This document shows positions 112 through 63,892 of a stretch of DNA of 64,000 bases, in pieces. The DNA lies in IMG/VR virus record IMGVR_UViG_3300044487_000013, positions 1 through 64,000 of that record; one strand, 5' to 3'. The notes beneath the pieces were generated by a model. The model did no database searches. It was not told where the DNA came from and saw only the letters and a list, made by a program, of their open reading frames with translations. Every line of letters begins with the position of its first letter. Position 1 is the first letter of the stretch. This DNA comes from a virus. The position numbers and the translations under genes are program-made.

Positions 112-113
112 CA

Positions 114-619: not shown

Positions 620-657
620 TCGTGGCCTCAAGATGGAGCACTCCGCCGGCCCGAAGC

Positions 658-723
658 GTAGGCGAAAGGTCGCAAACGGCCGGCGGGTTCAACGGTGGCA
701 CGCGGGCTGCATTAGGAACGGGC
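658..723 (+). promoter_or_regulatory. repeated intergenic element, copy A, with a sigma-54-like -24/-12 motif (TGGCACG-N4-CTGCA)
   Basis: GTAGGCGAAAGG box at 658-670. TGGCACG at 696-702 with GC at 709-710, so GG-N10-GC spacing. ATG of the next ORF lies 14 nt downstream of the -12 C. Confidence 0.45.
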
Positions 724-945
724 ATGACGAACGATTACGGCAAGGGACGCGGCGCGAAGAACCGGATCGCCAAGGCCGAACTCAAGGCAGCCTGGAACCA
801 GGCCATCCGCGAAGGCCGCCTGGTCAATTTTGGCGACACCATTCGCCAATACGACTCGGCTTTCGCCGCCCAACTCGCGGTCGACGCGGCCCGCAAGGAT
901 GGCCTCACCGCTTTCATCGTGCCAGCGCACCTGGCGGAGGAGTAA
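724..945 (+). CDS. hypothetical early protein
   Basis: Internal ATG of ORF 592..945, immediately downstream of repeat copy A. 73 aa. Confidence 0.55.
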   Translation: MTNDYGKGRGAKNRIAKAELKAAWNQAIREGRLVNFGDTIRQYDSAFAAQLAVDAARKDGLTAFIVPAHLAEE

Positions 946-1220: not shown

Positions 1221-1250
1221 TCCTGGCCTCACAATGGGGCACCTTCTACG

Positions 1251-1323
1251 GGCGAAGCGCTGGCGAGAGTCTCGAGAGTTGGCCCATTTTCCCGGTGGCA
1301 TGGCGAGTGCATTAGGTGAGAGC
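1251..1323 (+). promoter_or_regulatory. repeated intergenic element, copy B (TGGCATG-N4-GTGCA)
   Basis: GGCGAAGCGCTGGCGAGAG box followed by TGGCATG at 1296-1302 and GC at 1309-1310. Same 14-nt distance to the ATG at 1324 as copy A. Confidence 0.45.
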
Positions 1324-1521
1324 ATGATGAACACCAACGAGACCAACAACGAGACGGTAACGCGGCTGCGTCGCATCCCGGTCTTCCCGGCGCTCACCCT
1401 GGTCGGCTCACGGCCGACGGTCCTCGGGGTTTCCTACGACACCTACGCCGAGGCCCTGGCAGCTAAGGAGGCCAACGTCGAATACATCACGGTCGATATC
1501 TTCGGCCGGGAGGTGCGCTAA
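1324..1521 (+). CDS. hypothetical early protein
   Basis: Internal ATG of ORF 1234..1521. 65 aa. Confidence 0.5.
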   Translation: MMNTNETNNETVTRLRRIPVFPALTLVGSRPTVLGVSYDTYAEALAAKEANVEYITVDIFGREVR

Positions 1522-4665: not shown

Positions 4666-4773
4666 GCCATATCGCATACAGCTGTGCTTGAACGCCCGGC
4701 GGCCGATCGGATAAGATCGGGCGCTTCCAACATCAGGAGGGCGCCATTGCCCAGGTCGCGGCGCGATGACCAG

Positions 4774-4950
4774 ATGAAGGCGTTCGTGGAACAACACAGC
4801 ATCCACGGCGCCATCCATGCCCTGGTCGAAGTCTGTCACCGGCGAGCGGCCGAGCTAGATGATGAACCCGGCCGCCGGGCCGAAAACATACGTGAGGTTG
4901 CGAGGCGCCTCACGTATGTCGAAGAACTCGCCTCGCGGATGGAACTCTAA
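4774..4950 (+). CDS. hypothetical protein
   Basis: Internal ATG of ORF 4684..4950. 58 aa. Confidence 0.4.
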   Translation: MKAFVEQHSIHGAIHALVEVCHRRAAELDDEPGRRAENIREVARRLTYVEELASRMEL

Positions 4951-4966
4951 GGAAGGAGGAAACAAG

Positions 4967-5032
4967 ATGGCTGACGCATTGAAGGATCTACTCGATTGGA
5001 TCTTCGGCAACACCGTCGTGTGGGGTAACTAG
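4967..5032 (+). CDS. candidate 21-aa sORF (MADALKDLLDWIFGNTVVWGN)
   Basis: Very strong SD, AAGGAAGGAGGAAACAAG, immediately before the ATG. The stop is followed by a GC hairpin. Confidence 0.25.
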   Translation: MADALKDLLDWIFGNTVVWGN

Positions 5033-5056
5033 CCCACCATTTCCTGGCGCGCGGGG

Positions 5057-5458
5057 TCAGTCGATCGGCCCCGCGACCACGATGCGCCCGGTCGCCACGC
5101 AGCGAGCCTTCCCCATCTCATCATCGACCGTCAGCCGCACCAGGTAGTCGCCAGGCACCAGCGTCAGGTTCTTCCATTCAATCTGCTTCGTACGCGAGTC
5201 CGTGTGGATGCCGGAGGCAGTTTCCTCGTCGCCCTCCGGCCCGAGGAGCGCTACCCGCCCGCCGCGGTTCTTCTCGTCCGGCTCCACGATCGTTCGAAGC
5301 TTGACGTAGCGCATAGGCGCCATAGCGGCGGGCGTGAGCACCTGGACCGCGCATGCCGGCGCGGCCTCGGCCGATCGCATCCCGAGGGACGCCAGAACCA
5401 GGCCGATGATGACGGCCGCCCACAGCAGGCTCCAGTCTATGCGGCGCTCAGGCGACAT
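5057..5458 (-). CDS. membrane-anchored (N-terminal TM) hypothetical protein
   Basis: Hydrophobic segment WAAVIIGLVLASLG near the N-terminus. 133 aa. Confidence 0.5.
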   Translation of the reverse strand: MSPERRIDWSLLWAAVIIGLVLASLGMRSAEAAPACAVQVLTPAAMAPMRYVKLRTIVEPDEKNRGGRVALLGPEGDEETASGIHTDSRTKQIEWKNLTLVPGDYLVRLTVDDEMGKARCVATGRIVVAGPID

Positions 5459-19273: not shown

Positions 19274-19630
19274 CTATCCCATGAGCGCACGGTTCAAGTC
19301 GATCCGCTTACCCACCCGCACGGCCATCGAGGACCGGCTCTCGCGGATGACCGACTCCAGGTACTTCCACTGCCCGACCTTGTGAAACGCGTCCGGGTCC
19401 TCATGCACGAAGATGGCGTAGGGTGCCGCGGGGCCGCCCGCCACGATCAGCGTGTAAATGATCCGGCCCTCCCGGATCGGACCCACCACGTGGATGGACC
19501 CGCGCAACGGACCGTACTTCACCGGGGTCCGTCGCTTGACCTCCGTTGCCTCGACCTGCGTCTCCTGGTAGAGGGCGCGCGCTATCTCATCCGGGAAGCG
19601 CTGAGCCAGTCGCTTCAGCTTTTCCCGCAT
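19274..19630 (-). CDS. HK97 gp10-like head-tail joining protein
   Basis: RTPVKYGPLRGSIHV-type motif. Start chosen at the internal Met with an AAGGG SD. The upstream ORF extension looks artefactual. Confidence 0.5.
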   Translation of the reverse strand: MREKLKRLAQRFPDEIARALYQETQVEATEVKRRTPVKYGPLRGSIHVVGPIREGRIIYTLIVAGGPAAPYAIFVHEDPDAFHKVGQWKYLESVIRESRSSMAVRVGKRIDLNRALMG

Positions 19631-20825
19631 CGCCTGGGCGCCCTTCAGGTTGGCTGCTGGACTCGACACGTCGTAGTCTCCACGCCTTGTCGACCTCCTC
19701 GGTAAACCGGAGGCCGATATTTTCCCACCTGAATTGAGGCTGATGAGCGAGTGCGAGGCCTGCCGCAGCGTGCCGTTCACGCCAGGCACCGTCATAGTAC
19801 ATCGTTTCCAGTGAAGCAATAAAGTCCTTTTTGTCGGGGACACCACCGATCACGTTCACACCACCGAACGTCACCCCGTGGCTGGTGCATGGCACCAGGC
19901 GGGCCGCCGGCCTGGCCCAGTCCCCGAGGGCTGACCAGTCGGGAACGACCTGCGGGATGCCGCACGCCATGCCCTCCAGCGTTGTCAGGCCCCAGCCCTC
20001 GCCCTGGGTGGTGGAGATCTGGACGTCTGCCGCCTGGTAGGTCAGGACCAGTTCCTCTTCGGTGTAGCCCTCGTAGACGCCCGGCTGCTCCAGGAGCACC
20101 TTGCCACGCAGACCGTAATAACGCGTCAGCTGCTCGCAATCGACGCCCACGTCTCCGGTGGGGCACACGTGCAAGTAGAGGTACGCGTTGTCGAGCTTGT
20201 TCTTGTGAACGAACTCAGCGAAGTACTCGAAGGTCAGGTCGATGCGCTTCCGCGGCTGGTTGCGGTTCGTGTTCATCACGATAAACCCGCTGTGGCATGG
20301 TGCCGGAAGGCCGATCGTCTTGCGCGCAGCCAGCCGGTCGCCCGGCTTGTAGATCTCCAGGTCGACGCCCAGGCCGACGACACCAGCGGGCTTGAAGAAG
20401 CCGCCGGCCCGCGCCTCGTACTCCGCAAACCCCGTCCAGAAGATGGCGTAGTCCAGGTCCTGGATGTAACTGGCCCGGAGGTTCTTACCGTCGACCGCGA
20501 TGGCGCCCACCACGACTGGCTGTTGCTTGAGGGCGCGGATCTTCTCCATGTACCGCGGCACGTTCCAGGGGTCGTTCTGGATGACGATCAGGTCCGGGCG
20601 CTCCTTGGCGTAGATCTCCAGGAGCGTCTTGTCGCCCATGAGGCTGCCGCCAGGCACGTAGGCCGGGTAGATTTTGTACGGGTACTCGTGCGGGTATCCG
20701 CGGTAGTTGATCCCGAGGACGACGACGTCCCAAGTGCGCCGGAGCACTTCCAGCGTCTTGTGCGTCGCACGCGCGAACCCGCTGTCGCAACCAGCGTCGC
20801 CAATCCAGAGCAGCTTGCGCTTCAT
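19587..20825 (-). CDS. GT4-family (GT-B fold) glycosyltransferase
   Basis: EX7E motif EGWGLTTLE...GMACGIPQV. Start MKRKLLWIG with ATGA overlap. Confidence 0.75.
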   Translation of the reverse strand: MKRKLLWIGDAGCDSGFARATHKTLEVLRRTWDVVVLGINYRGYPHEYPYKIYPAYVPGGSLMGDKTLLEIYAKERPDLIVIQNDPWNVPRYMEKIRALKQQPVVVGAIAVDGKNLRASYIQDLDYAIFWTGFAEYEARAGGFFKPAGVVGLGVDLEIYKPGDRLAARKTIGLPAPCHSGFIVMNTNRNQPRKRIDLTFEYFAEFVHKNKLDNAYLYLHVCPTGDVGVDCEQLTRYYGLRGKVLLEQPGVYEGYTEEELVLTYQAADVQISTTQGEGWGLTTLEGMACGIPQVVPDWSALGDWARPAARLVPCTSHGVTFGGVNVIGGVPDKKDFIASLETMYYDGAWRERHAAAGLALAHQPQFRWENIGLRFTEEVDKAWRLRRVESSSQPEGRPGDAGKAEATGSALPG

Positions 20826-21631
20826 CGGTACCTCCGCTCGTAGATCCACTGCCGCCCAGGAAATGGGAACTCGAAGAACTTGTTCTGGATGTTCGACTGC
20901 CGACCGATATGCTGCACGAACGAGGGCACGCTGGCCGCGAAGCATCGCGCGCCGATCTCCTTGCCCCATATCTGGAGGAGCAGGTCGTGGCCCCGCTGCC
21001 GGTGCTGTTCGCGGCCATCATCGAGGAAAGGGTCCGGTCCCAGCCAATCAGCCAGCTGCTGCGCGACCTGCCGACGCCAGACCAGGCATTGCGCGCCGTA
21101 GAAACCGTACACCGGATGCGGGGCGACAGCCTCACCCTTCGCGAGCATCGCGCGCACGCGCGGGAAGGACTCGCCGTGCCGGATCACCGACTCGTCCTCG
21201 GCGCGGTAATGGGAGTCGCTGACCTTCTCGAAGGTGGCCGCCAGCGTGAACATTGGCACGGCCGCGTGGCCGTGGTCGGACAACCACGCCTCAACGCTCT
21301 CCAGGAACGTGTCGAGGAAGTCGAGATCGTCTTCCAGCTTCATCACGTAGTCCGCGTTCGTGTCGCTGCCCAGGCGGATGGCCCGCGCCGCGTTCTGCTG
21401 CCGGGTGCAAGGCTCGGCCTCGCAGATGATCTCCTCACCAAGCGGAATGTACTTCTCAGCTTCGATGAGGAAGTCGTCGTCCTTGGTGCCGCCGCAGGAG
21501 ATCTGCAGCGAGTGCAGGTAGGGCGATGACCAGAAGTCCGTGCGGGCCAGGTTCTCCAGCGTCCGCGCCAGGTAGTTCTCTCCGCCGGTCAGTCGGCGGT
21601 CGTGGGTCTCGATGACGACAGCAATTTTCAC
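20822..21631 (-). CDS. GT-A-fold glycosyltransferase (DXD motif)
   Basis: N-terminal MKIAVVIETHD strand. DXD-like EDDLDF. Confidence 0.5.
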   Translation of the reverse strand: MKIAVVIETHDRRLTGGENYLARTLENLARTDFWSSPYLHSLQISCGGTKDDDFLIEAEKYIPLGEEIICEAEPCTRQQNAARAIRLGSDTNADYVMKLEDDLDFLDTFLESVEAWLSDHGHAAVPMFTLAATFEKVSDSHYRAEDESVIRHGESFPRVRAMLAKGEAVAPHPVYGFYGAQCLVWRRQVAQQLADWLGPDPFLDDGREQHRQRGHDLLLQIWGKEIGARCFAASVPSFVQHIGRQSNIQNKFFEFPFPGRQWIYERRYR

Positions 21632-22170
21632 AGCATGGCCTCCAGCTTGCGGATGATCTCAGCCCGGTCGTGGTAGTGCCGCGGATTATCGCGGCTGATG
21701 GCCCGCGGCCGTTCCAACTGCTCGATCGGCATCACCACACTGTTGTGCGGCGCCTCCTGGTAGCGGTACGCCAGGTGCGTGAAGATGCGATCGATCTCGA
21801 TCGGGTCCAGGTCGCCGTACCAATCGTGCCACGGCTGGAAGTCGATGAGGCGCTTCGGAAAGAAGCATCCCCACCCGATCAGCGTGACGCGATTGCCGCA
21901 GAGTTCGTTGTAGATCCGGAGGTGACCGTGCGTGATGGCGTTCGTGACCCGCTCGTCATAGTGCCGCCACAGGCGTCGAATGTCAATCTGCGCGTCGTCA
22001 TCCTGGACGTAGATGATCTCGTTCCGCGCCTGCTTCGCCAGGTCAAACCGCGGCAGCAGGTTCGGACTCTCCGTTTGGACAAGCACATCATCGAACGGAA
22101 AGTTCATCTCGATATCCGCCGGCCACTCCTTCTCGCGAGTCACCAGGACGGCCGTCACCTTGTCGGTCAT
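21628..22170 (-). CDS. small GT-A-like glycosyltransferase
   Basis: VTAVLVTRE strand and QDDD acidic motif. ATGA overlaps on both sides. Confidence 0.35.
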   Translation of the reverse strand: MTDKVTAVLVTREKEWPADIEMNFPFDDVLVQTESPNLLPRFDLAKQARNEIIYVQDDDAQIDIRRLWRHYDERVTNAITHGHLRIYNELCGNRVTLIGWGCFFPKRLIDFQPWHDWYGDLDPIEIDRIFTHLAYRYQEAPHNSVVMPIEQLERPRAISRDNPRHYHDRAEIIRKLEAML

Positions 22171-22934
22171 CCCAGGATCTCCCGGAAGTAGGCAGCGTGC
22201 TCCGACGCCCAGTCCTCGTACGTTCGATGGTTGGTCAGGTAGAACAGGACCTGACGGAGGCTGTCCCAGCTGCCCTTCTCGTACTCAATGACCGGGCGCA
22301 CGATGGCGAAACCGATCCTCGGGCTGATCACCGGCTTGCCGGCGGCCATCGCCTCAATGATTGGTGTGCATCCACCTTCGAGCGATGACGTCACCAAGTA
22401 GTAGTCGATGCCCTGGTAGAACGCAGGCAGGTCCCCGTAGCGACTGCTGACGATCGGGCAGGGCCATCCGGTACCCCACGCGCGCACGTCGTAGCCGGCC
22501 TCCAGCATCTTCTTCACCAGGGCCTCCCCCTTCCGAGGGTTACCCGGCTTGACGCTGCCTGCCACCCCGAATACCGGCCGGCGCTTCGGCAGGAAGATAT
22601 CGTCCACGGCCTGCTCGATGATGCGCGGGTTCGGGGCGCCGAGGCTCAGCATCAGGTCGCGCATGGCCGGGTTCAGGACAACGTGGCCGTCGTACTTCGC
22701 TGCGAACTGCCGCGGCCGGCCATCGTCGTGCGCGAAGAGGCCGATCGCCTTGCGGCCACGGCCGCTCGGTGGGAAGTAGACGTTCGAATGGTACTCGACG
22801 TCGCACCTCCGCTCGAAGGCGTTGATGCGCGCGTCGAACCCGTACCGCGGCAGCCGGTCGACCAGTTCCTTGGCGAGCCGGCCGACGATCCAGTTCATGT
22901 CCGGCCCGGTGACCGGGATGTTGACGGTCACCAT
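22167..22934 (-). CDS. GT4-like glycosyltransferase (compact)
   Basis: EX7E motif EGGCTPIIEAMAAGKPVIS. Confidence 0.55.
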   Translation of the reverse strand: MVTVNIPVTGPDMNWIVGRLAKELVDRLPRYGFDARINAFERRCDVEYHSNVYFPPSGRGRKAIGLFAHDDGRPRQFAAKYDGHVVLNPAMRDLMLSLGAPNPRIIEQAVDDIFLPKRRPVFGVAGSVKPGNPRKGEALVKKMLEAGYDVRAWGTGWPCPIVSSRYGDLPAFYQGIDYYLVTSSLEGGCTPIIEAMAAGKPVISPRIGFAIVRPVIEYEKGSWDSLRQVLFYLTNHRTYEDWASEHAAYFREILG

Positions 22935-23488
22935 ATGCCTATGCCGCCCCAGTGGTGGCCTCCACTGATCTCAAGCCACGTGCCCGGAACGGTTTCGACC
23001 TTGATCTCGTTCCAGAACTGCGGCACCCCAGTCTGCTTCGCGTCGATATCATGCGTAGCCGTGATGGCATCCGGGGTGAGGAACCAACGGTACGCATCCC
23101 AGTCTTCCCGCTTGCCCTTGTAGGAGTCGTCGCCATCGAGGAACAGCAGGTCGGCCCGGCGGCCTGCGAGGGCCACGGCCACGAGTCCCTGCGTCTCCAG
23201 AGCGTGCGAGTCTCCGAGGATGCAGCGGATCCGGCCGCCGAACTCCTTCTCCAGGATCTTGTTGCGAACCTGGCAGGCAGCGAGGCTCAGCCCGGTCGCG
23301 TCGCCGGAGGCCGGCATGTCGACGGTCACCAGGAACGCATCGGGGAACAGCCGTCCGAGGTGCTGGATGAACCCGCCGGGGCCGGTACCGATCTCCAGGA
23401 TCGTCTGCGGGTCGCAGGCCGCCTTCAGGTAGCGGTCGAACTCCGCCACCTCCTCCGGCCACTGCAGCATCTTCAGGTCGTGAGGCAT
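22928..23488 (-). CDS. class I SAM-dependent methyltransferase
   Basis: Motif I ILEIGTGPGGF. Start at the Met with a GAGG SD (MPHDLKM). Confidence 0.7.
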   Translation of the reverse strand: MPHDLKMLQWPEEVAEFDRYLKAACDPQTILEIGTGPGGFIQHLGRLFPDAFLVTVDMPASGDATGLSLAACQVRNKILEKEFGGRIRCILGDSHALETQGLVAVALAGRRADLLFLDGDDSYKGKREDWDAYRWFLTPDAITATHDIDAKQTGVPQFWNEIKVETVPGTWLEISGGHHWGGIGIW

Positions 23489-24525
23489 AGGACCTCGTCG
23501 CAAATGAAGTGAGCGTCGTCCTCAGTGAGGCCGGGGTGCGTCGGCAGGCTGAAGCCGCGCGTACCGATCTCGGTGGCAGTCGGGAACTCCCCGCTGTTGA
23601 ACTCCGGCATGGTGTGCAGCGGGACGAAGGTCGGCCGCGTCTCGATGCCGCGGCTGCCCAGGGCGCCCATCACCATATCCCGGTTGACATGCCGCGGCAC
23701 CAGGGCCGTGAACAACCAGGGCGATACACGCGCGCCCGCGCGTGGGTGCTGGCGCGAGAGGTGGAAGAGGCGCCGCTTGTAGACCGCGATGACCTTCTCG
23801 CGGGCCGCCCACATCTCGTCCAGACGCGCCAGCTGCGCGACCCCGAGGGCCGCCTGCAGGTCAGTCATCCGGTAATTGAAGCCGAGTTCCGTATGGTAAT
23901 AGCGGCGCACCGGATGCTGGGCCATGCCCCGCAGCGACCGCAGCCGCATCGCGTACTTCGGATTGTTCGTCACCACCGCTCCGCCCTCGCCAGTCGTGAT
24001 CAGCTTGTTGCCGTAGAAGCTGAAGCAGGACATGTCGCCCAGGCAGATGGGCTGGCTGTAGAGCGCCTCGGCGGCATCCTCGATAATCGCCACGCGGTCG
24101 TTAAGGCCAGTGAAGTCGTCGGTCGGCACGCCGTAGAGATGCACCGGGATGATGGCGCGCGTGCGCCGCGTGATGGTTCGCTTCGTTGCGTCTATATCGA
24201 GGCCCCACGTGTCCGGATTGACGTCGACCAGAACGGGGCGGGCGCCGGTATACATCACCGCGTAGGCCGTCGCCACGTAGGTCAGGTCGGGCACGATCAC
24301 CTCGTCGCCAGGGCCGACGCCGAGGGCGGCGAGCGCCAGGTGCAAGGCCGTCGTCCCGCTGGACGTCGCGACCGCGAACTTCTGCTCGTGCGTGTACGCG
24401 AGGATCTTCTCGAACCGCTCGACCATCGGGCCGCTCGTGATCTGCCCGCTGTTGAAGACGTCGAGGAGAAGTTTTCGTTCGTAGGAGGAAAGATCTGGCC
24501 GGCTAACCTGGTACTTGTACGTCAT
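23473..24525 (-). CDS. DegT/DnrJ/EryC1/StrS-family PLP-dependent sugar aminotransferase
   Basis: SFYGNK PLP-lysine motif. Overall family pattern (ArnB/WecE/PglE-like). Confidence 0.9.
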   Translation of the reverse strand: MTYKYQVSRPDLSSYERKLLLDVFNSGQITSGPMVERFEKILAYTHEQKFAVATSSGTTALHLALAALGVGPGDEVIVPDLTYVATAYAVMYTGARPVLVDVNPDTWGLDIDATKRTITRRTRAIIPVHLYGVPTDDFTGLNDRVAIIEDAAEALYSQPICLGDMSCFSFYGNKLITTGEGGAVVTNNPKYAMRLRSLRGMAQHPVRRYYHTELGFNYRMTDLQAALGVAQLARLDEMWAAREKVIAVYKRRLFHLSRQHPRAGARVSPWLFTALVPRHVNRDMVMGALGSRGIETRPTFVPLHTMPEFNSGEFPTATEIGTRGFSLPTHPGLTEDDAHFICDEVLCLTT

Positions 24526-25832: not shown

Positions 25833-25930
25833 GGCAGGGTCCTCAAAAAGAAAACGCGGTAGGCAAGGATTATACCCTGCCTACCGCGTGGATGGTACCC
25901 GTCGATGACCTACCTACCGCCGCGTGGGAA

Positions 25931-26995
25931 CTAGCCGTTGAGGTGGCAGATCCCGCTCTTCCCCGAGGCCGTCGCGCGGATCAGCGGAGCGCCGATCGAG
26001 AAGACCTTGAAGTTGAGCTTGAACCCGCCGGCCTCGTCCCACTGCACGTTCTGGATCTGCTCGCCCTGGATCCAGGCCGCGACGTCGGGCGACGCCTGCA
26101 TGACGATCAGGTTGCCCGAGGGCAGCTGGTCGGCCACGCCAATCCGCTGCACACTCGACACCTGCGAGATGCGCCCACGGATCGACTGGATGTTCGCGGT
26201 CGCCGCGTTGTAATCGTTGTCGATGATCACACCCGCGTCGGTCGGCATGTACACCCAGTAGGGTCCGAAGAACTTGTTCGCCTGGAGCGCCGTGATGGCC
26301 GCGAGCAGGTCCTTCAGGTACGAAGAGCCGGCCTTCGTGCTGTCACCCCAGTCCTTGCCGCCGTCGAACGACACGGTCGTGACGCGGTTCGGATGCGTGG
26401 TGTAGCCGTAGATCGGCAGGCCGCCGAAGGTCGGTCCACCCTGGAACAGCATCTTCTCCAGCTGCTCGCTGACGACGCGCGCCGCGGTCTGAGCCTGGAT
26501 GGTGTCCAGGGTCTCGCCGCTCAGCCGCGCCGCGGCCAGCTTCCGGAGGTTGATGAAGTAGTCCTTGTGGGTGATCGGCAAGGGCAGCTGGTTCAGGTTG
26601 AACTCCTGAACGTCGTTGTCCGTCTGGCCGAGGCCGTCGAGCGACGTGATGGCCGCGTCCATGTCGGTCACCTGCTCGTAGCCGAACACCGTCTTCGCGA
26701 GGGCATTCGGAACGTTGCGGGTGAAGCCGGCCGAGATCAGGTCCTTGACGCCGACGAGGCGCATGACCGTCTCGCGGACCACCGCGTCATCGAAGTACTT
26801 CCACTCTTCGTGACGCAGCGTGTCGAGCGTGCGGAGGGCCGCGGTCGTCAGACCCTTGCCTTCCGTCATCGCCTTGTACAGCTGCTGGGTCGCCCAACGA
26901 CCGCTGTTCCCGTTGAACAACACGGTCGGGCTGGTGATGATGCTGGAAGCCGCGGGCGCCGATGCCACGCGACCCCGAGAAGTACGCTTCGCCAT
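25931..26995 (-). CDS. major capsid protein
   Basis: 354 aa. Downstream of the decoration-like and protease-scaffold genes. Lambda E-like order. Confidence 0.7.
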   Translation of the reverse strand: MAKRTSRGRVASAPAASSIITSPTVLFNGNSGRWATQQLYKAMTEGKGLTTAALRTLDTLRHEEWKYFDDAVVRETVMRLVGVKDLISAGFTRNVPNALAKTVFGYEQVTDMDAAITSLDGLGQTDNDVQEFNLNQLPLPITHKDYFINLRKLAAARLSGETLDTIQAQTAARVVSEQLEKMLFQGGPTFGGLPIYGYTTHPNRVTTVSFDGGKDWGDSTKAGSSYLKDLLAAITALQANKFFGPYWVYMPTDAGVIIDNDYNAATANIQSIRGRISQVSSVQRIGVADQLPSGNLIVMQASPDVAAWIQGEQIQNVQWDEAGGFKLNFKVFSIGAPLIRATASGKSGICHLNG

Positions 26996-48837: not shown

Positions 48838-48922
48838 GACCGTAGAAGGTCACGCGGCGGTTGAGTACCCTCAATGCTCAAATAACGGCGGTTTGGCGGG
48901 CACAAGGCGCCAGTAACGCAGA

Positions 48923-48940
48923 TGGCACGGCGCGTGCTTC
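48923..48940 (+). promoter_or_regulatory. sigma-54-like -24/-12 motif (TGGCACG-N4-GTGCT) upstream of a plus-strand gene
   Basis: GG-N10-GC spacing identical to copies A-E. About 75 nt upstream of the AGGAGG-ATG at 49010. Confidence 0.4.
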
Positions 48941-49009
48941 ATATCCGGGCGTTGGCCGGAACATCCGGCCGCCAGGCGGGCAATCAAGCCCAGCCGTTAG
49001 GAGGCGAAC

Positions 49010-49426
49010 ATGAAGCGAAGTGATATCGACCGGATCGTCAAGGCCATCGAGGCGTCCCTGAACGCCGAAATTCCGGGCACGCCCCGCATCACGGGCCGCG
49101 TTGGCGGCCGGGTCATGTACGTGGCCCTGCCGGGCAAGGGCAAGAACCGCGATGCCCTGTCGCGCCGCGCCGGCCAGGTCTTGACGGCCATCGCCCGGAA
49201 GAAGGAGGCGACGTCGAAGGCCCTCCAGGGCGTCCTTCAGGTCAACCGGAACGTGATTGCCGGCGCCATCCATGAACTGAAGCAGGCGAAGCTGGTCAAG
49301 GCAGTCACGATGCCGGAGCCGGCGCTCGCTCAATCGGTTGCTGAACATCGTCCGCGTACCTCGGAGCGCAAGGCTCGTACCCCGCGTCTGGCTGCGACCG
49401 CGGCCGACCGCGCCCGCCGGAAGTAA
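49010..49426 (+). CDS. hypothetical protein (plus-strand gene embedded in the minus-strand module)
   Basis: TTAGGAGGCGAAC-ATG. 138 aa. A terminator hairpin follows. Confidence 0.6.
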   Translation: MKRSDIDRIVKAIEASLNAEIPGTPRITGRVGGRVMYVALPGKGKNRDALSRRAGQVLTAIARKKEATSKALQGVLQVNRNVIAGAIHELKQAKLVKAVTMPEPALAQSVAEHRPRTSERKARTPRLAATAADRARRK

Positions 49427-49442
49427 ACATCCCCTGGCGAAC

Positions 49443-49488
49443 GCGGGAGGAGGCTTGGCTTGCCCTCCTCCCGCCCCACCTCTTTCTC
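49443..49488. terminator. bidirectional intrinsic terminator between convergent genes
   Basis: GCGGGAGGAGG-N10-CCTCCTCCCGC, an 11-bp GC stem. TCTTTCT tail. Confidence 0.5.
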
Positions 49489-49490
49489 GA

Positions 49491-50282
49491 TTAGAACGGA
49501 ACGTTGTCGCGGGCGGGCGTCTGATGGACGACCTCGCCTTCGATGGCGTCGCCGCCCTCCTCGTCACCGACCCCGGTGAGTTCCTTGTCCTTGATGGCCT
49601 CGTACCAGGCGTTCGCGAACGCGAACTCCTCGGCGGTCACCGGGGTGCCCGAGAGGGTCACCAGGAACTTGCCGAATGAACCCGCGTCGTTCTTGTCGAT
49701 GAACACGCTGAGTTCGAGGCGCAGCTGATAGGGCCGGAAGCCCTTCTTCGCCATCTTCGCCAGCTGCACGTGCTTGTCGATGATGGAGTTCAGGCTCTGG
49801 CCGGCGCCGAACGAGGTGCTGGAGAAGCTGATCATCACCCGCTCCATCGACGGGGTGAGGATGGCCGCCCAGTCGTAGATCCGGACGCCTTCCGGCTTCT
49901 TCAGGTTGGCCGCACGCGCGCCCTCCCAGGTGACCCGCGCGTCATCCCATGCGACGCGTTCGCCGTTGGTCCCGTTTTCCTTCTTCAGGTGCGCCCGCTT
50001 GCTCATGCGGACCGGGATGATGGTGATCGGCCCGATGCCGTACACCTCACGCGTCTCCGAGTTGTACATCTCCCCGAACTCCAGGCCCTCGATGTACTTC
50101 CCTTCGCTGCGGTCGATCGCCTTCGACGTCTTCTGCGCGATGGCGAGGAACGGCAGCTTGGTGTCGCTGGCCGTGATGTTGTCCACGCCTGCGATATCGT
50201 CCGCGGCCAGGCCCGGATCGTACACCGCGACCTGCGTGTTCGCATCGCGCGTGGCGATGGCGTCGTTCTTCACTGACTTCAT
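49491..50282 (-). CDS. putative recombination protein (SSAP candidate)
   Basis: Start at the internal Met with ATGA overlap. Paired with a Gp157-like gene and an SNF2 helicase as in Sak/Erf modules. No family motif recognised. Confidence 0.4.
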   Translation of the reverse strand: MKSVKNDAIATRDANTQVAVYDPGLAADDIAGVDNITASDTKLPFLAIAQKTSKAIDRSEGKYIEGLEFGEMYNSETREVYGIGPITIIPVRMSKRAHLKKENGTNGERVAWDDARVTWEGARAANLKKPEGVRIYDWAAILTPSMERVMISFSSTSFGAGQSLNSIIDKHVQLAKMAKKGFRPYQLRLELSVFIDKNDAGSFGKFLVTLSGTPVTAEEFAFANAWYEAIKDKELTGVGDEEGGDAIEGEVVHQTPARDNVPF

Positions 50283-55015: not shown

Positions 55016-55621
55016 TTAGGTGATCGACTGAAATTCGCGGGTACGGACCTGGAACCCCGTAAGGTCCTTTCCGGCCAGCTTGTTTTCCGCCGCGTAGTCG
55101 ACCAGCGTCGACTCCTTCGCCGCCTGAGCGTTCTTCGCGACGACCAGCTTCGCGGCCTGCGCGATGCCATAGATCTCGCCCTGCTCGTTCACGTACACGA
55201 CGATCGTTTCGAAGACCTTCATACCATCCTCCAGTGTGAGAAGTAGTTCGTCCACGTTGCATCGGCACATAGGGTGCCACGGTAGGTCGTTCATCTGCGC
55301 GAGGTAGAGCGCCGCGTCCTGCTTCGCACGTTCCTCTGCGGCCAGGTCCCGCTGCGGTTCCATTGGCCGCATGATGATCTCGTAGAGTCGACGGTCAGTC
55401 AGGTCCGCGCACAAGGGTGCCTTCACCTCCAGGACCAGGCCATAGTGGCCGCCGATGGTATCCGGCTCGCCCGCGAAGAAGGCCGCCTTCGCTCGCTCGA
55501 ACTCGTCCTCGTACTGCGTCACGTAGGTGACTACCTGACGCCTGCGAGCGTACTGCGCCTGCTCCAGAGCGTCGTAGTACCGCTCGGCATCCTCGTGGCT
55601 CATGTACGAGTTATTTGGCAT
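55016..55621 (-). CDS. hypothetical protein (N-terminal part of a possible split gene)
   Basis: Start MPNNSYMSHEDAERYY. 201 aa. Confidence 0.5.
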   Translation of the reverse strand: MPNNSYMSHEDAERYYDALEQAQYARRRQVVTYVTQYEDEFERAKAAFFAGEPDTIGGHYGLVLEVKAPLCADLTDRRLYEIIMRPMEPQRDLAAEERAKQDAALYLAQMNDLPWHPMCRCNVDELLLTLEDGMKVFETIVVYVNEQGEIYGIAQAAKLVVAKNAQAAKESTLVDYAAENKLAGKDLTGFQVRTREFQSIT

Positions 55622-57842
55622 CGGCCCAGGTCCTTCCAACTCCGACCTCCCACAAGATGGGAACGCGGAACTCCAGGTACTGCGTGTTCAGCGCTTCCTT
55701 CAGCTTCATTGGGTCACCATGCAGATCTCCTGCCAGAGCGTCATGCACGGTAAACCGCTCGATCAGACCCAACTCGTGACGCCTTTTGTGGATCTCGACC
55801 AGGGTCACTTTGATGTCATCGGCCTCGGTACCCTGGATGACACCGTTGAGCGCCGAGTAGAAACGGTCGCCTACGCCGAACCGACGACGTCGCCCGAGGA
55901 ACGTTTTTACGTAGCCGCGATGCGGATAACCCGCATCGTAGTACTTTCGGCAGGCGCCACCGCACGAGTCCGCGCCGAATGAACCCTCTCGCTGGAAGGA
56001 CGCGCGATGGCCGGGCATCGAGAGGTGCGCGGCCAGCTTGAGCAGTGGTTTCACGGACGGAAACATCGTGTGGTACGTCTCCGATAGCTGCACCACCTCT
56101 TGGAACTTCGGCCCGCCGACCCGATGGGTGCTCTTGCTCTTTGTCGCGTCCAGCCATTCGTCGTAGGACGGGATCTGGTCCTCCGGCACACCAAGCTGGC
56201 GAGCCATCTTCGGGATCCCGGCGCCGAACACCTGGGCGAAGTTCACGTTCTTGACGTGGGTGCGGATCAGGTCGCGACCTGCATGTTCGAAAATGAGTCG
56301 GCCCACGACTCCGTGGTAGTCCGTCAGCTTGTCATCAGCCGTGAGCGGCAAGCCGGCCAGCCGCTTGGCCTCGGCCCGCGCCTCGATCTCGCGCCATCCC
56401 CAGTCGCGTTTGTACGCCTCGATGATGCGTGGGTCGTTTCCATAGTGGGCGAAGATGCGGAACTGCAGCGAGTTGGCGTCCGCGTTGACGTACTTGGCTG
56501 ACGGGTCCGCGGTCTTGAACAGTTTCTTCACGATGTACTTGCGGGTGAAGGGCCGGTTCTTCTTCTGGCTCTCCACCCCGAACACCTGCTGGATGTTCGC
56601 GCCATCGTCGCGGAACGGTGCGGCCGAGGAGAAACGGCCCGAGACCGCTCCGCCGTGGCCCTCAGCATCATCCTGGTAGGGCATCTGGTGTAGTTCGTAG
56701 CGGAGGATGCCGTCCCGCGACGTCGATCGCTGATACTTCAGGAGGAACTTGGACCGCAGGCTCTCCAGCTGGAGGCCGGCGCTCATCGCCTGGACCCAAC
56801 GGTTCTGGATGGGTTTCAGCAGAGCGACCGCGAACGAGTAGTTCGGCTCGCCAGTCTCCGGATGGTAGGGCTGCTCCTCATCGAGCGGCGGGTCGATATG
56901 CAGGCGGCTGAACAGCTGCAAGGCCGCCTTGCGGTTGGTGAACTTCTCGAACTCGACCCCGGTCGCCTTCCGAATGGCGTGCCGCAGGTTGTCCAGGTCG
57001 CGGGCGCTCGCGTTGACCCAGCGGTTCAGCAGTTCGACGTCGATGGGCGCTCCGTTATGCTCCATCTCTACGACGACCGGGATGACCGCGTCCTCGACCG
57101 CGCGCACGGTGTGCAGGTCCTGCTCGGTCAGCTGCGGCCACATAGCGGCCTGGAGCAGATGCACGATCCGGACGTCGCCCTCGGCGCGGGGCGCCACTAG
57201 GCCTGCTGGGTACTCCGCGAACTTGCTGGGGTCCAGGTCATAGCCGCCTGCCGCGCGCACCTTGGCTTCCTCTGGCGTGATGATGCCCGGCTGGACCAGG
57301 AACGCGTTCGCCAGGTCCTCCTGGTTGAACCGGATCCGGTGGTCGTCCAGCAATGCCGCATAGTGAGCAACGTCCCCGAAGGTGCAGCCTTGCGCTTCGA
57401 GATCCAGCCCATCGGCACGGAACATATGCAGGTCGAACTTGGTGCGGATGTTGACGATCCGCTTGCCGCGCAGTTCCCTTCGCGCCCATTCGAAGAACCT
57501 CTCCTCCGGGATGTTCACCCCGATCTTGTGGCGGATAGGCAGGTACCGCGAGCGGCCGTCCGGGGTCCAGATGCCGGCGCCGATCATGCGGTCACCGGCC
57601 CACCACTTGAGGCCGGTGGTTTCCAGGTCGATGATGATCTCGTCCATGCCGGCGAGCGACGGCAGGTCCGGCGGCTGCCAGTCCTTGACGCTGTCGAGCA
57701 TCGCCTGGTACGTGCGTCGGTCGCCTGCGTACCGCGCCTCCTGGCGCAGCAGGTCGACCCCGGCACGGTGGCGCGACATGGCGTCGGCGGCCCGCTGATC
57801 TTCCTCCGCGGAATGTGCCTTGGAGTATTCGAAGAGGTTCAT
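55611..57842 (-). CDS. family A DNA polymerase with 3'-5' exonuclease domain
   Basis: Exo motif IIIDLETTGL. Pol motif A DANSLQFRIFAHY, motif B NVNFAQVFGAG, motif C FTVHDA. Confidence 0.9.
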   Translation of the reverse strand: MNLFEYSKAHSAEEDQRAADAMSRHRAGVDLLRQEARYAGDRRTYQAMLDSVKDWQPPDLPSLAGMDEIIIDLETTGLKWWAGDRMIGAGIWTPDGRSRYLPIRHKIGVNIPEERFFEWARRELRGKRIVNIRTKFDLHMFRADGLDLEAQGCTFGDVAHYAALLDDHRIRFNQEDLANAFLVQPGIITPEEAKVRAAGGYDLDPSKFAEYPAGLVAPRAEGDVRIVHLLQAAMWPQLTEQDLHTVRAVEDAVIPVVVEMEHNGAPIDVELLNRWVNASARDLDNLRHAIRKATGVEFEKFTNRKAALQLFSRLHIDPPLDEEQPYHPETGEPNYSFAVALLKPIQNRWVQAMSAGLQLESLRSKFLLKYQRSTSRDGILRYELHQMPYQDDAEGHGGAVSGRFSSAAPFRDDGANIQQVFGVESQKKNRPFTRKYIVKKLFKTADPSAKYVNADANSLQFRIFAHYGNDPRIIEAYKRDWGWREIEARAEAKRLAGLPLTADDKLTDYHGVVGRLIFEHAGRDLIRTHVKNVNFAQVFGAGIPKMARQLGVPEDQIPSYDEWLDATKSKSTHRVGGPKFQEVVQLSETYHTMFPSVKPLLKLAAHLSMPGHRASFQREGSFGADSCGGACRKYYDAGYPHRGYVKTFLGRRRRFGVGDRFYSALNGVIQGTEADDIKVTLVEIHKRRHELGLIERFTVHDALAGDLHGDPMKLKEALNTQYLEFRVPILWEVGVGRTWADAK

Positions 57843-58273: not shown

Positions 58274-58282
58274 AAAGGGTAT

Positions 58283-58615
58283 TGGAGACGGTGGGAGTCG
58301 AACCCACGTCCGAACGAATGTTCCCGCGTCCATCTACGTGCATAGCCCGGTGCCGCCGGGCACGGTCTTGAACGACGCTGCGGTTTTCTTACTTGCCCGT
58401 CCCTGATCCGCAGCCAAACAGGATCGTGGGCCATAGCCGATTAATGACGTGGATGACGGCTTATCGGCATCAGCCGGTCCACGGACGGCTGCCTTAAGCA
58501 GCCATCGGGAGTGCAACAGGTTCCGCAATTAAGGGATCTGCCAGCGGATTAACGAGTCACTGGTGCTCGGCACGCAGACCCGGTTCAACGCGCTCGTCGA
58601 AGCCGTGTCGTCCCC
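58283..58615 (-). ncRNA. ssrA: tmRNA (ssrA), complete
   Basis: 5' GGGGACGACACGGCUUCGACG pairs with 3' ...GGACGUGGGUUCGACUCCCACCGUCUCCA, giving a G3-U wobble acceptor. Internal ORF ends GCUGCUUAA. Confidence 0.7.
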
Positions 58616-61175: not shown

Positions 61176-62324
61176 TTACTCGACCTGCCGGAGGAGCCCG
61201 GCCTGTTTCAACCGAGAGATGAGACTGGCGGGATGCGCCACCCCGAGAGCCTTGCATCGCTCCGAGATGCGCTCCGCCAACTCGGTCGCAGTGACCGGGC
61301 CGGCCTCGATCTCAGATCGGACCAGCTGCGCGGCCTCGCTGTTGGGCCAGCGTTCCGCATTGCCCGGATCGAGTTCCAGGGCGACCCGCTTGCGCGGCGC
61401 GGGCGCCTGGCGCGGCTTCTTCTCCTTCGGGGTCATCGCCTGCCTGGCGTCCTCCATCAGCGTGGGTGCGGCGGGCGCCGCGGCGGGCGGTTCCGCGGCG
61501 GGCGGTTCCGCGGCGGGCGGTTCGGCAGGCACGTTCCAGGGATCCTTCTGGATGACTACCTCACCCGGCTCCGGTGCGACCTCGGCGGCCACCTGATGCA
61601 CGAACGGGTCGGAGGCTTCTTCGATGATCGGCTCGCCCAATTCCGTCCAGGACCGGAACTCGTCGCCCCGCTTGTAACAGGCCCCGATGAACTGGCCCTC
61701 GGTCGCGGAGAATACGTAGACGTCCAGGATGTTGTCGTTGGTGCGGTTCACCATCAGCCGGCTTTCTTCGTGGGCGTCCTCCGCCGAGAACCGCTCCTTC
61801 AGCGTCTCGGTCGATTGGACCTTACGCCCTTTTTCCTCCCGCTCGCGCGTGACCATCAGGGTAAATGGGCCGCGATGCCGTGCGTAGATCTCGCGCATGT
61901 TTTCGTATCGAGCCATCTGCCAGATCCTCCAGTCGCTGTTGGTGACCAGGTCCCGCAGGACCCGGCAGTAGGTCGGGCCATGCCCGAACCGTTTCGTGGT
62001 GAGATGATCGAGAACGTGTGCGGCTTCGTGGAGCACCAGGCCCGCCCGCAGCCGGCCGCCTTCATCGAGCGGCAATCGCGGGAGGCTGATGCCGTAGCCG
62101 CGGAGGATATGGAACCTGGCGCGGCCCCGCTTGCATCCCCACAGCAGTTTCACCGACCGCGGTAGTTCAGGCTTCCAGAACAGTCGCATCCCGGCGAGGA
62201 TGCGCCGCGCTTCGAGTTCGTCGCATGGCGTCAGATGCGCCGCGACCAGTTCGCGGAGCCAGCCCTCGCGTGCCGCGCGTTTCAGGATGCTGGCGTACTC
62301 CAGGGACCTGGGATCCGGACGCAT
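61176..62324 (-). CDS. SprT-like zinc metallopeptidase domain protein with PAAEP tandem repeats
   Basis: HEAAHVLDHL...GHGPTY (HExxH ... GHGP). (PAAEP)x3 linker. Start uncertain (62324 or 62189). Confidence 0.55.
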   Translation of the reverse strand: MRPDPRSLEYASILKRAAREGWLRELVAAHLTPCDELEARRILAGMRLFWKPELPRSVKLLWGCKRGRARFHILRGYGISLPRLPLDEGGRLRAGLVLHEAAHVLDHLTTKRFGHGPTYCRVLRDLVTNSDWRIWQMARYENMREIYARHRGPFTLMVTREREEKGRKVQSTETLKERFSAEDAHEESRLMVNRTNDNILDVYVFSATEGQFIGACYKRGDEFRSWTELGEPIIEEASDPFVHQVAAEVAPEPGEVVIQKDPWNVPAEPPAAEPPAAEPPAAAPAAPTLMEDARQAMTPKEKKPRQAPAPRKRVALELDPGNAERWPNSEAAQLVRSEIEAGPVTATELAERISERCKALGVAHPASLISRLKQAGLLRQVE

Positions 62325-62466
62325 GGGTTCGGGCCTCCGTTGGGGTGACGTTCCAGCCGGTCGTCTCGTGGCCGCAGTCGATGCAGCGGAGCGAGATCCG
62401 GTTGGCTTCGAATTGCGGCAGCCGGTCATGGCCGCCGCGCATGATGCACGCGAGTCGTTTGAACAT
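62167..62466 (-). CDS. possible small zinc-ribbon protein (overlaps the SprT-like start)
   Basis: MFKRLACIMRGGHDRLPQFEANRISLRCIDCGHE. The tail is low-complexity. Confidence 0.25.
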   Translation of the reverse strand: MFKRLACIMRGGHDRLPQFEANRISLRCIDCGHETTGWNVTPTEARTHASGSQVPGVRQHPETRGTRGLAPRTGRGASDAMRRTRSAAHPRRDATVLEA

Positions 62467-62468
62467 TG

Positions 62469-62804
62469 TCAGTCTCGTGGGTCCGGAATGCGGCCGGCCA
62501 GGTAATCGGCGTAGGCTTCGGCTTCGCGCGCCGCGATGAGCGCCACTGGGACCGGGATGAACCCGTCGTGCGCCGCAATCTTCTTGCTGCGCGCGGTGAT
62601 CTCGGCCTCCATCAGCATCGAGCAGCGGGCGCACATTCCGTGCGACACGAGGCCGTCAGCCTGGCCGTCATCCTTGAGCGTTTCCGTGGCGTGCATCAGG
62701 TGCTGGCTCCATCCGCCGGTGCATACCGTCACCATGATCTCCTCGGTGGTGGTTGGGCCGGTCCATCCCGGCCAGCCCATCCTATTGCACTTGGCGTGCC
62801 GCAC
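62469..62804 (-). CDS. hypothetical protein (first minus-strand gene next to the divergent early region)
   Basis: 111 aa. Confidence 0.4.
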   Translation of the reverse strand: MRHAKCNRMGWPGWTGPTTTEEIMVTVCTGGWSQHLMHATETLKDDGQADGLVSHGMCARCSMLMEAEITARSKKIAAHDGFIPVPVALIAAREAEAYADYLAGRIPDPRD

Positions 62805-62961
62805 GGTTCAAGCGGGAAACGGTGCGCGAACTCGGGCAGTTGTGCGTTGGTGCCCGCCGCGGCGCATGTTCTTTACTGAGACGGTTGTTACATAAAGCGG
62901 TCAACGGCCGGGGAAAATCCCTGACGCCAATTCCGTCATCAGATGACCGAAAACTGTACTC

Positions 62962-63041
62962 GGAAATAGGCGAAGCGCTGGCGAAACGGCCGGAATGGCC
63001 GCCGGTTTCCCGATGGCATGGCGCTCGCACAAGAAGGCGGC
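62962..63041 (+). promoter_or_regulatory. repeated element copy E (TGGCATG-N4-TCGCA)
   Basis: GGCGAAGCGCTGGCGAAACGG box then TGGCATGGCGCTCGCA. ATG at 63042. Confidence 0.4.
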
Positions 63042-63365
63042 ATGACAAAACAGAAACCGATCCGATTCTGGTACGAGGGCTTCGAATACGAGATCCGCGA
63101 CGGCCACGCTTTCGGCGCCGATGGCCTGCCATCGCGCAACCAGCCGACGCGCCGGGGCGCCAAGTTCAACGAGCCGATCATCGATGCCGCCTACGAGAAG
63201 GAGATCATCGAGGCGGCCCAGCCGGTGACCATCCAGTACGAAGTGCCGGGCCGGCGCGGCGGGCCGATGGTCGCCAAGGAGCGTACGTTCCCGAACCAGC
63301 CCGCCCTGGAGGACTGGGCCAACGACCACCCGGAAGCCAACATTCTGCGCTATTCGGCGCGGTAA
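63042..63365 (+). CDS. hypothetical early protein
   Basis: Internal ATG with a GAAGG SD. 107 aa. Confidence 0.55.
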   Translation: MTKQKPIRFWYEGFEYEIRDGHAFGADGLPSRNQPTRRGAKFNEPIIDAAYEKEIIEAAQPVTIQYEVPGRRGGPMVAKERTFPNQPALEDWANDHPEANILRYSAR

Positions 63366-63389
63366 TCCGGGCGACGGAAGTGTGATCGG

Positions 63390-63467
63390 CGGCCGGCGAA
63401 ACGTAGGCGAAACGGCCTGATTGGCGGGCCGTTCCAGGGTGGCATGGTCCCTGCAGTAGGGTAGGGC
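63390..63467 (+). promoter_or_regulatory. repeated element copy C (TGGCATG-N4-CTGCA)
   Basis: GTAGGCGAAACGG box then TGGCATGGTCCCTGCAG. ATG at 63468. Confidence 0.4.
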
Positions 63468-63563
63468 ATGACCACGAACACCACCCTGGACCGATGGCTG
63501 GCGGAACAGAAGCTGGAACGCGAATTGGCGGCCGAACGCCGCGCCGCGGCCCGCAAAGCCTGA
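63468..63563 (+). CDS. candidate 31-aa sORF (MTTNTTLDRWLAEQKLERELAAERRAAARKA)
   Basis: Same geometry as the other copies: the ATG lies 14 nt after the -12-like GC. Confidence 0.35.
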   Translation: MTTNTTLDRWLAEQKLERELAAERRAAARKA

Positions 63564-63609
63564 TCACGGTCTTGGCGGTTCGCGACTCAAAGCGAGCCAC
63601 CAGCCGCGG

Positions 63610-63682
63610 CCGAAGCGCAGGCGAAAGCACGCGATTGGCCGAAGGGTTCAAGGGTGGCACGGAGATGGCAATAGGAGAAGGC
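63610..63682 (+). promoter_or_regulatory. repeated element copy D (TGGCACG-N4-TGGCA)
   Basis: GCAGGCGAAAGCACG box then TGGCACGGAGATGGCAA. ATG at 63683. Confidence 0.4.
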
Positions 63683-63892
63683 ATGAACACCTCAACGACC
63701 TTCACCCCGCGGGTTCGGTTCAATTGGGGATTTTGGGACGCGGTCGCCGCGAAGCGGGACGGCCGCCGGGTCCAAGACGAACTTTGGATCTCGCGCCACT
63801 TCGACCGCGCCTACGCCAAGGGCTACTCGGCCGGCAAGCAGGCCGAGGGCCAGCCCGCGACGAGCGACGCGGCATGGAAGGAGAGCCGATAA
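63683..63892 (+). CDS. hypothetical early protein
   Basis: Internal ATG of ORF 63494..63892. 69 aa. Confidence 0.5.
   Translation: MNTSTTFTPRVRFNWGFWDAVAAKRDGRRVQDELWISRHFDRAYAKGYSAGKQAEGQPATSDAAWKESR

Follow-up and report, generated by a model that had tools for sequence, protein, structure and literature searches.

We report a repeated promoter-like element in a 64,000-nt stretch of viral DNA (IMG/VR record IMGVR_UViG_3300044487_000013, positions 1 to 64,000; hereafter the window, meaning this stretch at its full length). The element is approximately 75 nt long and stands in front of the small rightward genes of a tailed phage. Our analysis indicates that its copies are probably sigma-54 (RpoN)-dependent promoters that are read by the host RNA polymerase, are co-regulated and additive, and carry a promoter-proximal regulator site.

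From 5' to 3', copies E, C, D, A and B consist of upstream repeats, 27 to 28 nt, a core, 13 nt and an ATG. The 5' part holds two CGAA half-sites in an 11-bp register (GGCGAA-N5-GGCGAAA), the stretch between repeats and core contains a weaker ATTGGCC block and a GTTYC block, and the core reads TGGCAYG-N4-nnGCA with an exact GG-N10-GC spacing. Copies E, C and D lie where the first-pass annotation had put them, and their ATGs at 63042, 63468 and 63683 were confirmed; its distance of about 14 nt to the ATG was refined, as GCA ends 12 nt before the ATG and 13 nt lie between GC and ATG. The copies and the open reading frames (ORFs) behind them are listed below, with core scores in bits from a weight matrix built from sites in relatives only.

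62969-63044, plus strand: copy E, whole element
62969..62986, plus strand: copy E upstream site GGCGAA-N5-GGCGAAA, half-sites 11 bp apart, approximately -72 to -55 from the predicted start
63014..63029, plus strand: copy E core TGGCATGGCGCTCGCA (-24 GG, -12 GC), 15.9 bits
63042..63365, plus strand: 107-aa ORF after copy E, ATG 13 nt past GC, called as a gene, without a family match
63395-63470, plus strand: copy C, whole element
63395..63412, plus strand: copy C upstream site GGCGAA-N5-GGCGAAA
63440..63455, plus strand: copy C core TGGCATGGTCCCTGCA, 21.9 bits, the best site in the genome
63468..63563, plus strand: 31-aa ORF after copy C, ATG 13 nt past GC
63609-63685, plus strand: copy D, whole element
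63609..63626, plus strand: copy D upstream site GCCGAA-N5-GGCGAAA
63655..63670, plus strand: copy D core TGGCACGGAGATGGCA, 19.5 bits
63683..63892, plus strand: 69-aa ORF after copy D, ATG 13 nt past GC
652..726, plus strand: copy A, CGAAGCGTAGGCGAAA, then core TGGCACGCGGGCTGCA at 696-711, 13 nt and ATG 724, before ORFs 724-945 and 945-1220
1253..1326, plus strand: copy B, CGAAGCGCTGGCGAGA, then core TGGCATGGCGAGTGCA at 1296-1311, 13 nt and ATG 1324
1.8 kb past the window end, on contig L014, plus strand: copy G, GGCGAACCGCTGGCGAAAG ... TGGCATGCCGCTCGCA, 13 nt and ATG
62801-62786, minus strand: copy F, core only CGGCACGCCAAGTGCA, without CGAA repeats, 19.3 bits
48923..48938, plus strand: possible eighth core TGGCACGGCGCGTGCT, 17.2 bits (null maximum 16.9)

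Pattern scans of the window excluded chance as the origin of the repeated element. The core pattern TGGCAYG-N6-GCA, scanned over both strands of the 64 kb, matched exactly the five in-window copies (0.41 +/- 0.64 expected), the upstream pattern CGAA-N6-GCGARA found exactly the same five sites (0.57 expected), and the composite pattern gave 5 matches against 0.00 expected. The first-pass annotation had proposed a multiple alignment as a check; when aligned, the six plus-strand copies shared 31 invariant columns over approximately 90 nt.

The core agrees with sigma-54 recognition, as the first-pass annotation had suggested. The sigma-54 promoter consensus is TGGCA(T/C)(G/A)-N4-TTGCA with GC at -12 (PMC11704786), and each copy matches 10 or 11 of its 12 positions. 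Relatives were found through the helicase, which has 2,861 homologues at E <= 1e-40. The helicase is 99% identical in contig L034 and 63 to 70% identical in L031, L032, L033, L037 and L038, and the latter five share the gene order of leftward polymerase, divergent gap, small genes and helicase. In all six, sites of this type flank the divergent gap, and the same five have them between the small genes as well. Together with the six plus-strand copies and F, 24 sites from these relatives, first picked by pattern and then curated by position, make up a curated set of 31 sites in seven genomes, and the GG-N10-GC spacing is exact throughout. Between the window and L034, five orthologous pairs showed no mismatches in TGGCA (0/25), nGCA (0/20) or ATG (0/15), and 6/25 (24%) in the internal N5 spacer. 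The matrix built from the relatives ranked the seven sites of this genome at the top, at 15.9 to 21.9 bits; maxima in 20 shuffled genomes were 10.4 to 16.9 bits. More distant relatives (41 to 54% identical) have a perfect TGGCACG-N4-TTGCA 50 to 110 nt upstream of the helicase gene, which in one of them, L001, is present as a divergent pair; ordinary Shine-Dalgarno leaders follow in every case.

A search for sigma-70-like promoters (-35 and -10 hexamers with 16 to 18 bp spacing) found 0 in 62400-64000 and 0 in 1-5400. Two other classifications of the element were tried and rejected. In a sigma-70 reading, TGGCAY is 11 nt from a conserved TA and the relatives lack a conserved -35 block. A structured RNA element was rejected on the RNAalifold consensus fold of the six copies, which reached only -1.8 kcal/mol with a slightly unfavourable covariation term (+0.86), and on the absence of an Rfam family at the element; the sole Rfam match in the window is a transfer-messenger RNA (tmRNA) elsewhere.

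The start codon keeps a fixed register with the core, a feature that the first-pass annotation had missed and that is conserved across diverged relatives. It lies exactly 13 nt after GC in 23 of the 31 curated sites, counted on both strands of the seven genomes, a fraction that overstates the number of independent events because copies share descent within and between genomes. The 13 nt themselves diverge (consensus nTAGGnnnGGGC). The eight exceptions comprise sites at 14, 15, 16 and 16 nt, the two sites of F type, whose leaders are long, and a further two in L037, where GGAGG and then ATG come immediately after the same module, an arrangement that fits a transcript beginning at that point. 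All 23 register starts are ATG, whereas ATG makes up 82.5% of the starts of 200 genes called in five relatives, and outside gene callers placed starts on these ATGs in most cases. Two Cys-rich micro-ORFs of the CxxC..CxxC type were missed by the gene callers (43 aa at L014 4325-4456, and 26 aa at L033 7472-7392 on the minus strand); both start exactly 13 nt after a core, and the former is the ORF that copy G precedes.

With GC at -12 and the ATG 13 nt after GC, transcription is predicted to start 0 to 3 nt ahead of the AUG. A leaderless or near-leaderless mRNA may thus carry each unit's first cistron; the 5' end is a predicted one, and a leader of 1 to 3 nt is possible. The same register places the Shine-Dalgarno-like purines upstream of the predicted transcript start. 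We know of no described family of sigma-54 promoters that initiates at the start codon. A text search likewise found no described sigma-54 promoter family set to start at the start codon, and the literature search found no paper on sigma-54 early promoters or sigma-54 leaderless transcripts in phages.

The paired CGAA site (CGAAGCGCTGGCGAAA) occurs nowhere in the window except at these promoters, and its half-sites lie on one helix face, centred near -62, at a constant 27 to 28 nt from the core. The CGAA-type repeat is also present in L034, L031, L032 and L037; L033 has instead an inverted repeat, GACCAG-N11-CTGGTC, common to its two divergent promoters. The CGAA repeats thus appear to behave as the binding site of a specific regulator, for which an activator and a repressor would look alike in sequence. 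The copy E site is approximately 200 bp upstream of the predicted start of copy F, which is a classical enhancer distance for F. Copy F itself points leftward from the divergent control region and would drive the leftward genes, with an ordinary long leader in which GAGGAG precedes the start codon, ATG, for a small, conserved Cys/His protein (62735-62469). This protein, encoded by the first leftward gene (62469-62735, minus strand), carries the motif M[IV]T[VI]C.GW..H..H...SHGMC..C, is conserved in every genome with CGAA repeats and is missing from this place in L033; it is therefore a candidate regulator, if a weak lead. It had no match in Pfam or PDB, its homologue search returned only a near-identical protein, and its AlphaFold model (predicted local distance difference test, pLDDT, 58.6) was too poor for use.

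Beyond the relatives, the composite pattern had six matches in 185,579 reference genomes, none with further blocks of the element or an ATG at 13 nt, and judged from the matched sequences these look like chance. A scan of IMG/VR with a 28- to 36-nt gap, which fits only copies A and D, gave no match. A metagenome scan returned eight short contigs, of which L024, L025, L027, L026 and L028 look like genuine further examples with ordinary leaders. These five (the first three being metagenome contigs of the Joint Genome Institute, JGI) look unrelated, are too short for interpretation, and place this upstream repeat at an identical distance from a perfect sigma-54 core, as in CGAAGCGTTGGCGAAAG-N26-TGGCACGTTGGTTGCA; the regulator site may be in use outside this phage clade.

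The arrangement of the units bears on how the copies work together. Each copy occupies nearly the whole intergenic gap and is co-oriented with the called gene downstream, and intrinsic terminators between units of the small-gene block were either absent or no more frequent than in shuffled sequence. The copies do precede consecutive plus-strand genes, as described in the first-pass annotation, but the single small ORF that it assigned to each unit does not hold generally: the units contain from one to at least six genes, the 69-aa ORF at 63683..63892 opening a series of at least six genes, overlapping or closely packed, that crosses the window end. Copy B stands before ORF 1324-1521 and the UvrD-like helicase gene at 1521-3086. 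The 31-aa ORF behind copy C is probably real, since its orthologues in L034 (100% identical) and L031 (53%) were called as genes in both contigs. The notion of individually regulated micro-operons was not supported. All six plus-strand copies share the same upstream half-sites at the same distance, inter-unit terminator-like sites were not found and the element fills the gaps, so the copies look co-regulated and additive.

Modular duplication, also put forward in the first-pass annotation, was borne out. Copy A resembles D and copy B resembles G, both within this genome and across to L034, where A and D share approximately 45 nearly identical nucleotides that differ from copy A of the window. 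On this pattern the copies are paralogues that show traces of duplication or of gene conversion. Gene content between the copies varies among close relatives. Separately, copies A and B share an additional 34-nt block (608-641 and 1209-1242, plus strand; 82% identical; CCGTAATCGTGGCCTCAAGATGGAGCAC and partner) that overlaps the stop codons of the preceding genes approximately 80 to 110 nt upstream of the predicted starts; the other copies are without it.

The rightward block, made up of the small genes and the UvrD-like helicase gene, runs from approximately 62950, crosses the window end and, by way of the window start, reaches approximately 4665, and leftward genes occupy approximately 5057 to 62804. 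Logan contig L014 is identical to the window over 2,507 nt and adds 2,053 nt beyond its end, with five or six further genes and copy G. L034, a JGI contig, holds the entire rightward block in one piece with orthologues of the copies in the order E, C, D, G, A, B; mapped on it, only approximately 31 nt separate the L014 extension from window position 1. The circular continuation into copies A and B claimed earlier was therefore right in substance, although approximately 2.1 kb and copy G intervene and the window ends do not abut. A 100%-identical protein was found on a JGI contig of 66,052 nt.

The polymerase that carries sigma-54 cannot open DNA without an ATP-driven AAA+ enhancer-binding protein, and a host-encoded activator is the norm for sigma-54 promoters. 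For this phage too, a host-encoded activator would be the simplest assumption, as must hold for Pseudomonas phage YuA. The only host label came from a Bryobacteraceae-binned contig with a 56%-identical helicase, and that contig is without such sites. Among the 21 small proteins of the rightward block, only DUF6891 was above threshold in Pfam.

Several observations weigh against a sigma-54 assignment or against parts of it. Six-frame scans of the window and 38 fetched loci (including 50 kb of YuA) found no GAFTGA or matching Walker-A signature, and no ORF of at least 230 aa matched the Pfam sigma-54 activator domain PF00158. Classical enhancers are inverted repeats at approximately -100 to -150, and the repeats here are direct and near -62. 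TA at +3/+4 after GC, GGC before the ATG and AC after it are conserved, which reaches further downstream than in typical bacterial sigma-54 promoters. A Shine-Dalgarno-like AGGA stands 7 to 8 nt ahead of the ATG, where a leaderless transcript would have no use for it. The pattern-based choice of the relatives' sites and the shared descent of the copies, both given above, belong here as well, and it is from sequence that dependence on sigma-54, the start site and 'early' timing are inferred.

In a different reading, the CGAA-N7-CGAA site would not bind an activator but would serve a phage repressor or shut-off factor as its operator, or be bound by an architectural protein, and activation would be due to an enhancer-binding protein in solution or elsewhere. 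The site is approximately 35 to 46 bp upstream of GG, too close for classical DNA looping, its repeats are direct rather than inverted, and the leftward promoter F has no CGAA copy of its own. The Cys/His protein is encoded by the first leftward gene wherever CGAA repeats occur and is absent there in L033, but this is a single contrast and a DNA-binding fold could not be shown for the small protein. A position of -62 on one helix face is also typical of activators, and activation and repression look alike in sequence; we consider the operator explanation somewhat unlikely. Another reading would make the element a promoter for a phage-specified machine (a phage sigma-like factor that has escaped recognition, a host polymerase that a small early protein re-targets, or a cryptic phage RNA polymerase), with its -24/-12 likeness coincidental or convergent. 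Conservation that runs to the start codon (TA, GGC, ATGAC), as in phage-polymerase promoters with an initiation region, would fit such a machine, as would the copies at L032 +9743 and L031 +6675, which read CACTATAG(A/G) and which we take to resemble SP6/T7-type promoters. An enhancer-binding ATPase was not found in the phage, its 2-kb extension or any fetched relative, and most early proteins are without a known family. Against this, the window ORFs had no Pfam or PHROG match to a phage RNA polymerase, single-subunit or otherwise, and no DxDGD motif, so that there is no candidate gene, and seven genomes retain both halves of the sigma-54 consensus at exactly 10 bp in spite of a drifting spacer. 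The first promoters on either side of the divergent region are also of this type, so they must be active before the phage has made any protein, an injected one aside. A phage-specified machine is quite unlikely on this evidence.

Other explanations place the function of the element outside promoter recognition. It could act mainly as RNA, as a translational operator that overlaps the start codon, as a site of processing, or as the structured leader of RNAs begun farther upstream. Conservation of the ATG and the next two bases, the purine-rich Shine-Dalgarno-like stretch, and the lack of inter-unit terminators, from which read-through RNA containing the element is expected, would all be in line with such a role. 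The poor consensus fold and the Rfam result given above speak against it. The best-conserved columns are the GG and GC blocks 10 bp apart, a signature of DNA recognition, conservation is higher at TA than at the GG of the putative Shine-Dalgarno site, and no other promoter is visible to make the upstream RNA, which leaves an RNA-level role highly improbable. Alternatively, the repeats could be chiefly recombination substrates that shuffle small gene cassettes, with promoter activity secondary, as proposed for the T4-type promoter-stem-loop repeats. The more similar pairs A/D and B/G, the near-identical nucleotides of A and D in L034, which suggest gene conversion, and the differing gene content between copies are all consistent with shuffling. 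Recombination needs similarity only, however, and leaves the invariance of the sigma-54 positions and of the ATG register unexplained, and relatives with unrelated flanks keep the same core. As a primary function, recombination seems to us quite improbable; as an activity of the repeats, it is compatible with sigma-54 promoters and does not replace them.

If the copies are sigma-54 promoters, the holoenzyme would dock on TGGCAY (-24) and nGCA (-12), and a protein bound to the two CGAA half-sites, 11 bp apart near -62, would switch the six rightward promoters together. This protein could be the activator or its partner, and either host-encoded or a non-canonical phage protein. Transcription would start 11 to 14 nt after GC, 0 to 3 nt before the AUG, making the first gene leaderless or near-leaderless, and later genes of a unit would be translated from Shine-Dalgarno sites and overlapping stop and start codons. 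Promoters would add up along the block instead of defining independent operons, given the lack of terminators between units, and on read-through transcripts the purine-rich stretch between -12 and the ATG could serve as a ribosome-binding site. The copies would have arisen by duplication and would still exchange sequence. A bolder version, which we regard as unlikely, is that a whole clade of approximately 65-kb uncultured phages begins infection with sigma-54 promoters whose transcripts start on the start codon and which are switched on by a small promoter-proximal factor at -62 and not by a distant AAA+ protein. The factor might come from the phage itself, one example being the conserved Cys/His protein expressed from the leftward promoter. 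If true, this would be a new way of activating the sigma-54 polymerase, or of bypassing activation.

The possible eighth core lies 72 nt upstream of a lone plus-strand gene (49010-49426) inside the leftward cluster. This gene encodes 138 aa, has a strong GGAGG site and was called by an outside pipeline; the long minus-strand ORF that overlies it (48878-49567) is probably not a gene. Matches of the 138-aa protein to winged-helix domains were weak and sub-threshold, and its AlphaFold model (pLDDT 43.0) was too poor for use.

The window belongs to a tailed double-stranded DNA phage with a genome of approximately 66 kb, as identified from the genes below together with those for a primase-helicase and an SNF2 helicase, also encoded in the window.

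32329-33867, minus strand: portal protein
34359-36647, minus strand: large terminase
55611-57842, minus strand: family A DNA polymerase
1521-3086, plus strand: UvrD-like helicase

A near-identity DNA search against cultured phages gave no match, and the closest cultured portal proteins are 36 to 38% identical. Several other features were observed outside the small-gene block. A one-piece, full-length tmRNA gene is present at 58280-58615 on the minus strand (Rfam RF00023, 134.8 bits, E 1.4e-52); its tag peptide according to ARAGORN, AEPVALPMAA, could help in host identification. Among the structural genes, a sugar-modification set (19587-24525, minus strand) comprises two group-1 glycosyltransferases and an aminotransferase of the DegT/perosamine-synthetase type (E 4.7e-97). 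Homologues occur on many phage-sized contigs, and the perosamine synthetase gave no host clue, its top matches being other phage-sized contigs without taxonomy. A strong terminator-like hairpin with a T-run (GGTAGGCAGGGTATAATCCTTGCCTACCGCGTTTTCTTTTT) and an internal TATAAT lies at 25833-25930 (minus strand), after the major capsid gene (25931-26995); relative to the small-gene block, the late region may perhaps be under other signals. The second leftward gene (61176-62429, minus strand) encodes a 417-aa protein with a HEAAH metalloprotease-like motif and an AEPP repeat and without a family match.

For genes that are needed immediately by a virus, sigma-54 is a strange choice, because its polymerase needs an ATP-driven activator to open DNA. 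This raises the question of whether the activator is a host signalling protein, in which case infection would be tied to host physiology, or a new phage factor. It also raises the questions of whether sigma-54 promoters can yield leaderless mRNAs and how repeated promoter modules spread among early genes. As a compact 75-nt module with a fixed geometry of binding site, -24/-12 core and start codon, the element is a ready part for reporters and orthogonal expression designs.

The use of sigma-54 by phages is known but rare, and the layout found here has not been described before. The closest known case is YuA (Yuavirus). Its GenBank record annotates three active '-24/-12 consensus' promoters, and the phage was reportedly tested in an rpoN mutant by Ceyssens et al. 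in 2008. YuA is also a tailed phage, of approximately 60 kb and 64% G+C, that uses host sigma-54 without an RNA polymerase or enhancer-binding protein of its own; the GAFTGA motif was not found in the 50 kb of YuA that were scanned. A transcriptome study from 2024 describes it as dependent on sigma-70 as well as sigma-54 (PMC10914365). The three YuA sites, however, lie in the particle-formation and lysis (late) region, are not copies of one another, and fail the strict TGGCAYG-N6-GC pattern used for this phage. By contrast, the present phage has six to eight copies of one composite element at a divergent control region and in a small-gene block, with a promoter-proximal repeat in common and a set spacing to the start codon. 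This phage and YuA are only distantly related, the DNA polymerase being approximately 25% identical to relatives of that family.

With bacterial sigma-54 promoters such as glnAp2 (NtrC) and nifH (NifA), the element shares GG and GC 10 bp apart, the extended consensus TGGCACG-N4-TTGCA and a specific upstream protein-binding site, which is putative here. Classical enhancers usually act by looping, often with integration host factor (IHF). Classical sigma-54 promoters differ further in giving mRNAs with ordinary leaders, whereas this phage has direct repeats near -62 and no cognate ATPase was found in it. Leaderless mRNAs, such as that of lambda cI from PRM, similarly have the start codon at or beside the predicted 5' end and are strictly AUG (23/23 here); in S. 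meliloti, all leaderless starts are AUG (PMC3616915). The known leaderless cases come from sigma-70-type promoters, while the promoters of this phage are of the sigma-54 type and their 5' ends are predicted. The T4-type promoter-stem-loop elements (PeSLs) offer a final parallel, as repeated early-promoter sequences between small genes of no assigned function with signs of exchange between copies. PeSLs pair sigma-70 early promoters with a stem-loop, whereas the element of this phage is of the sigma-54 type and is without a conserved stem-loop.

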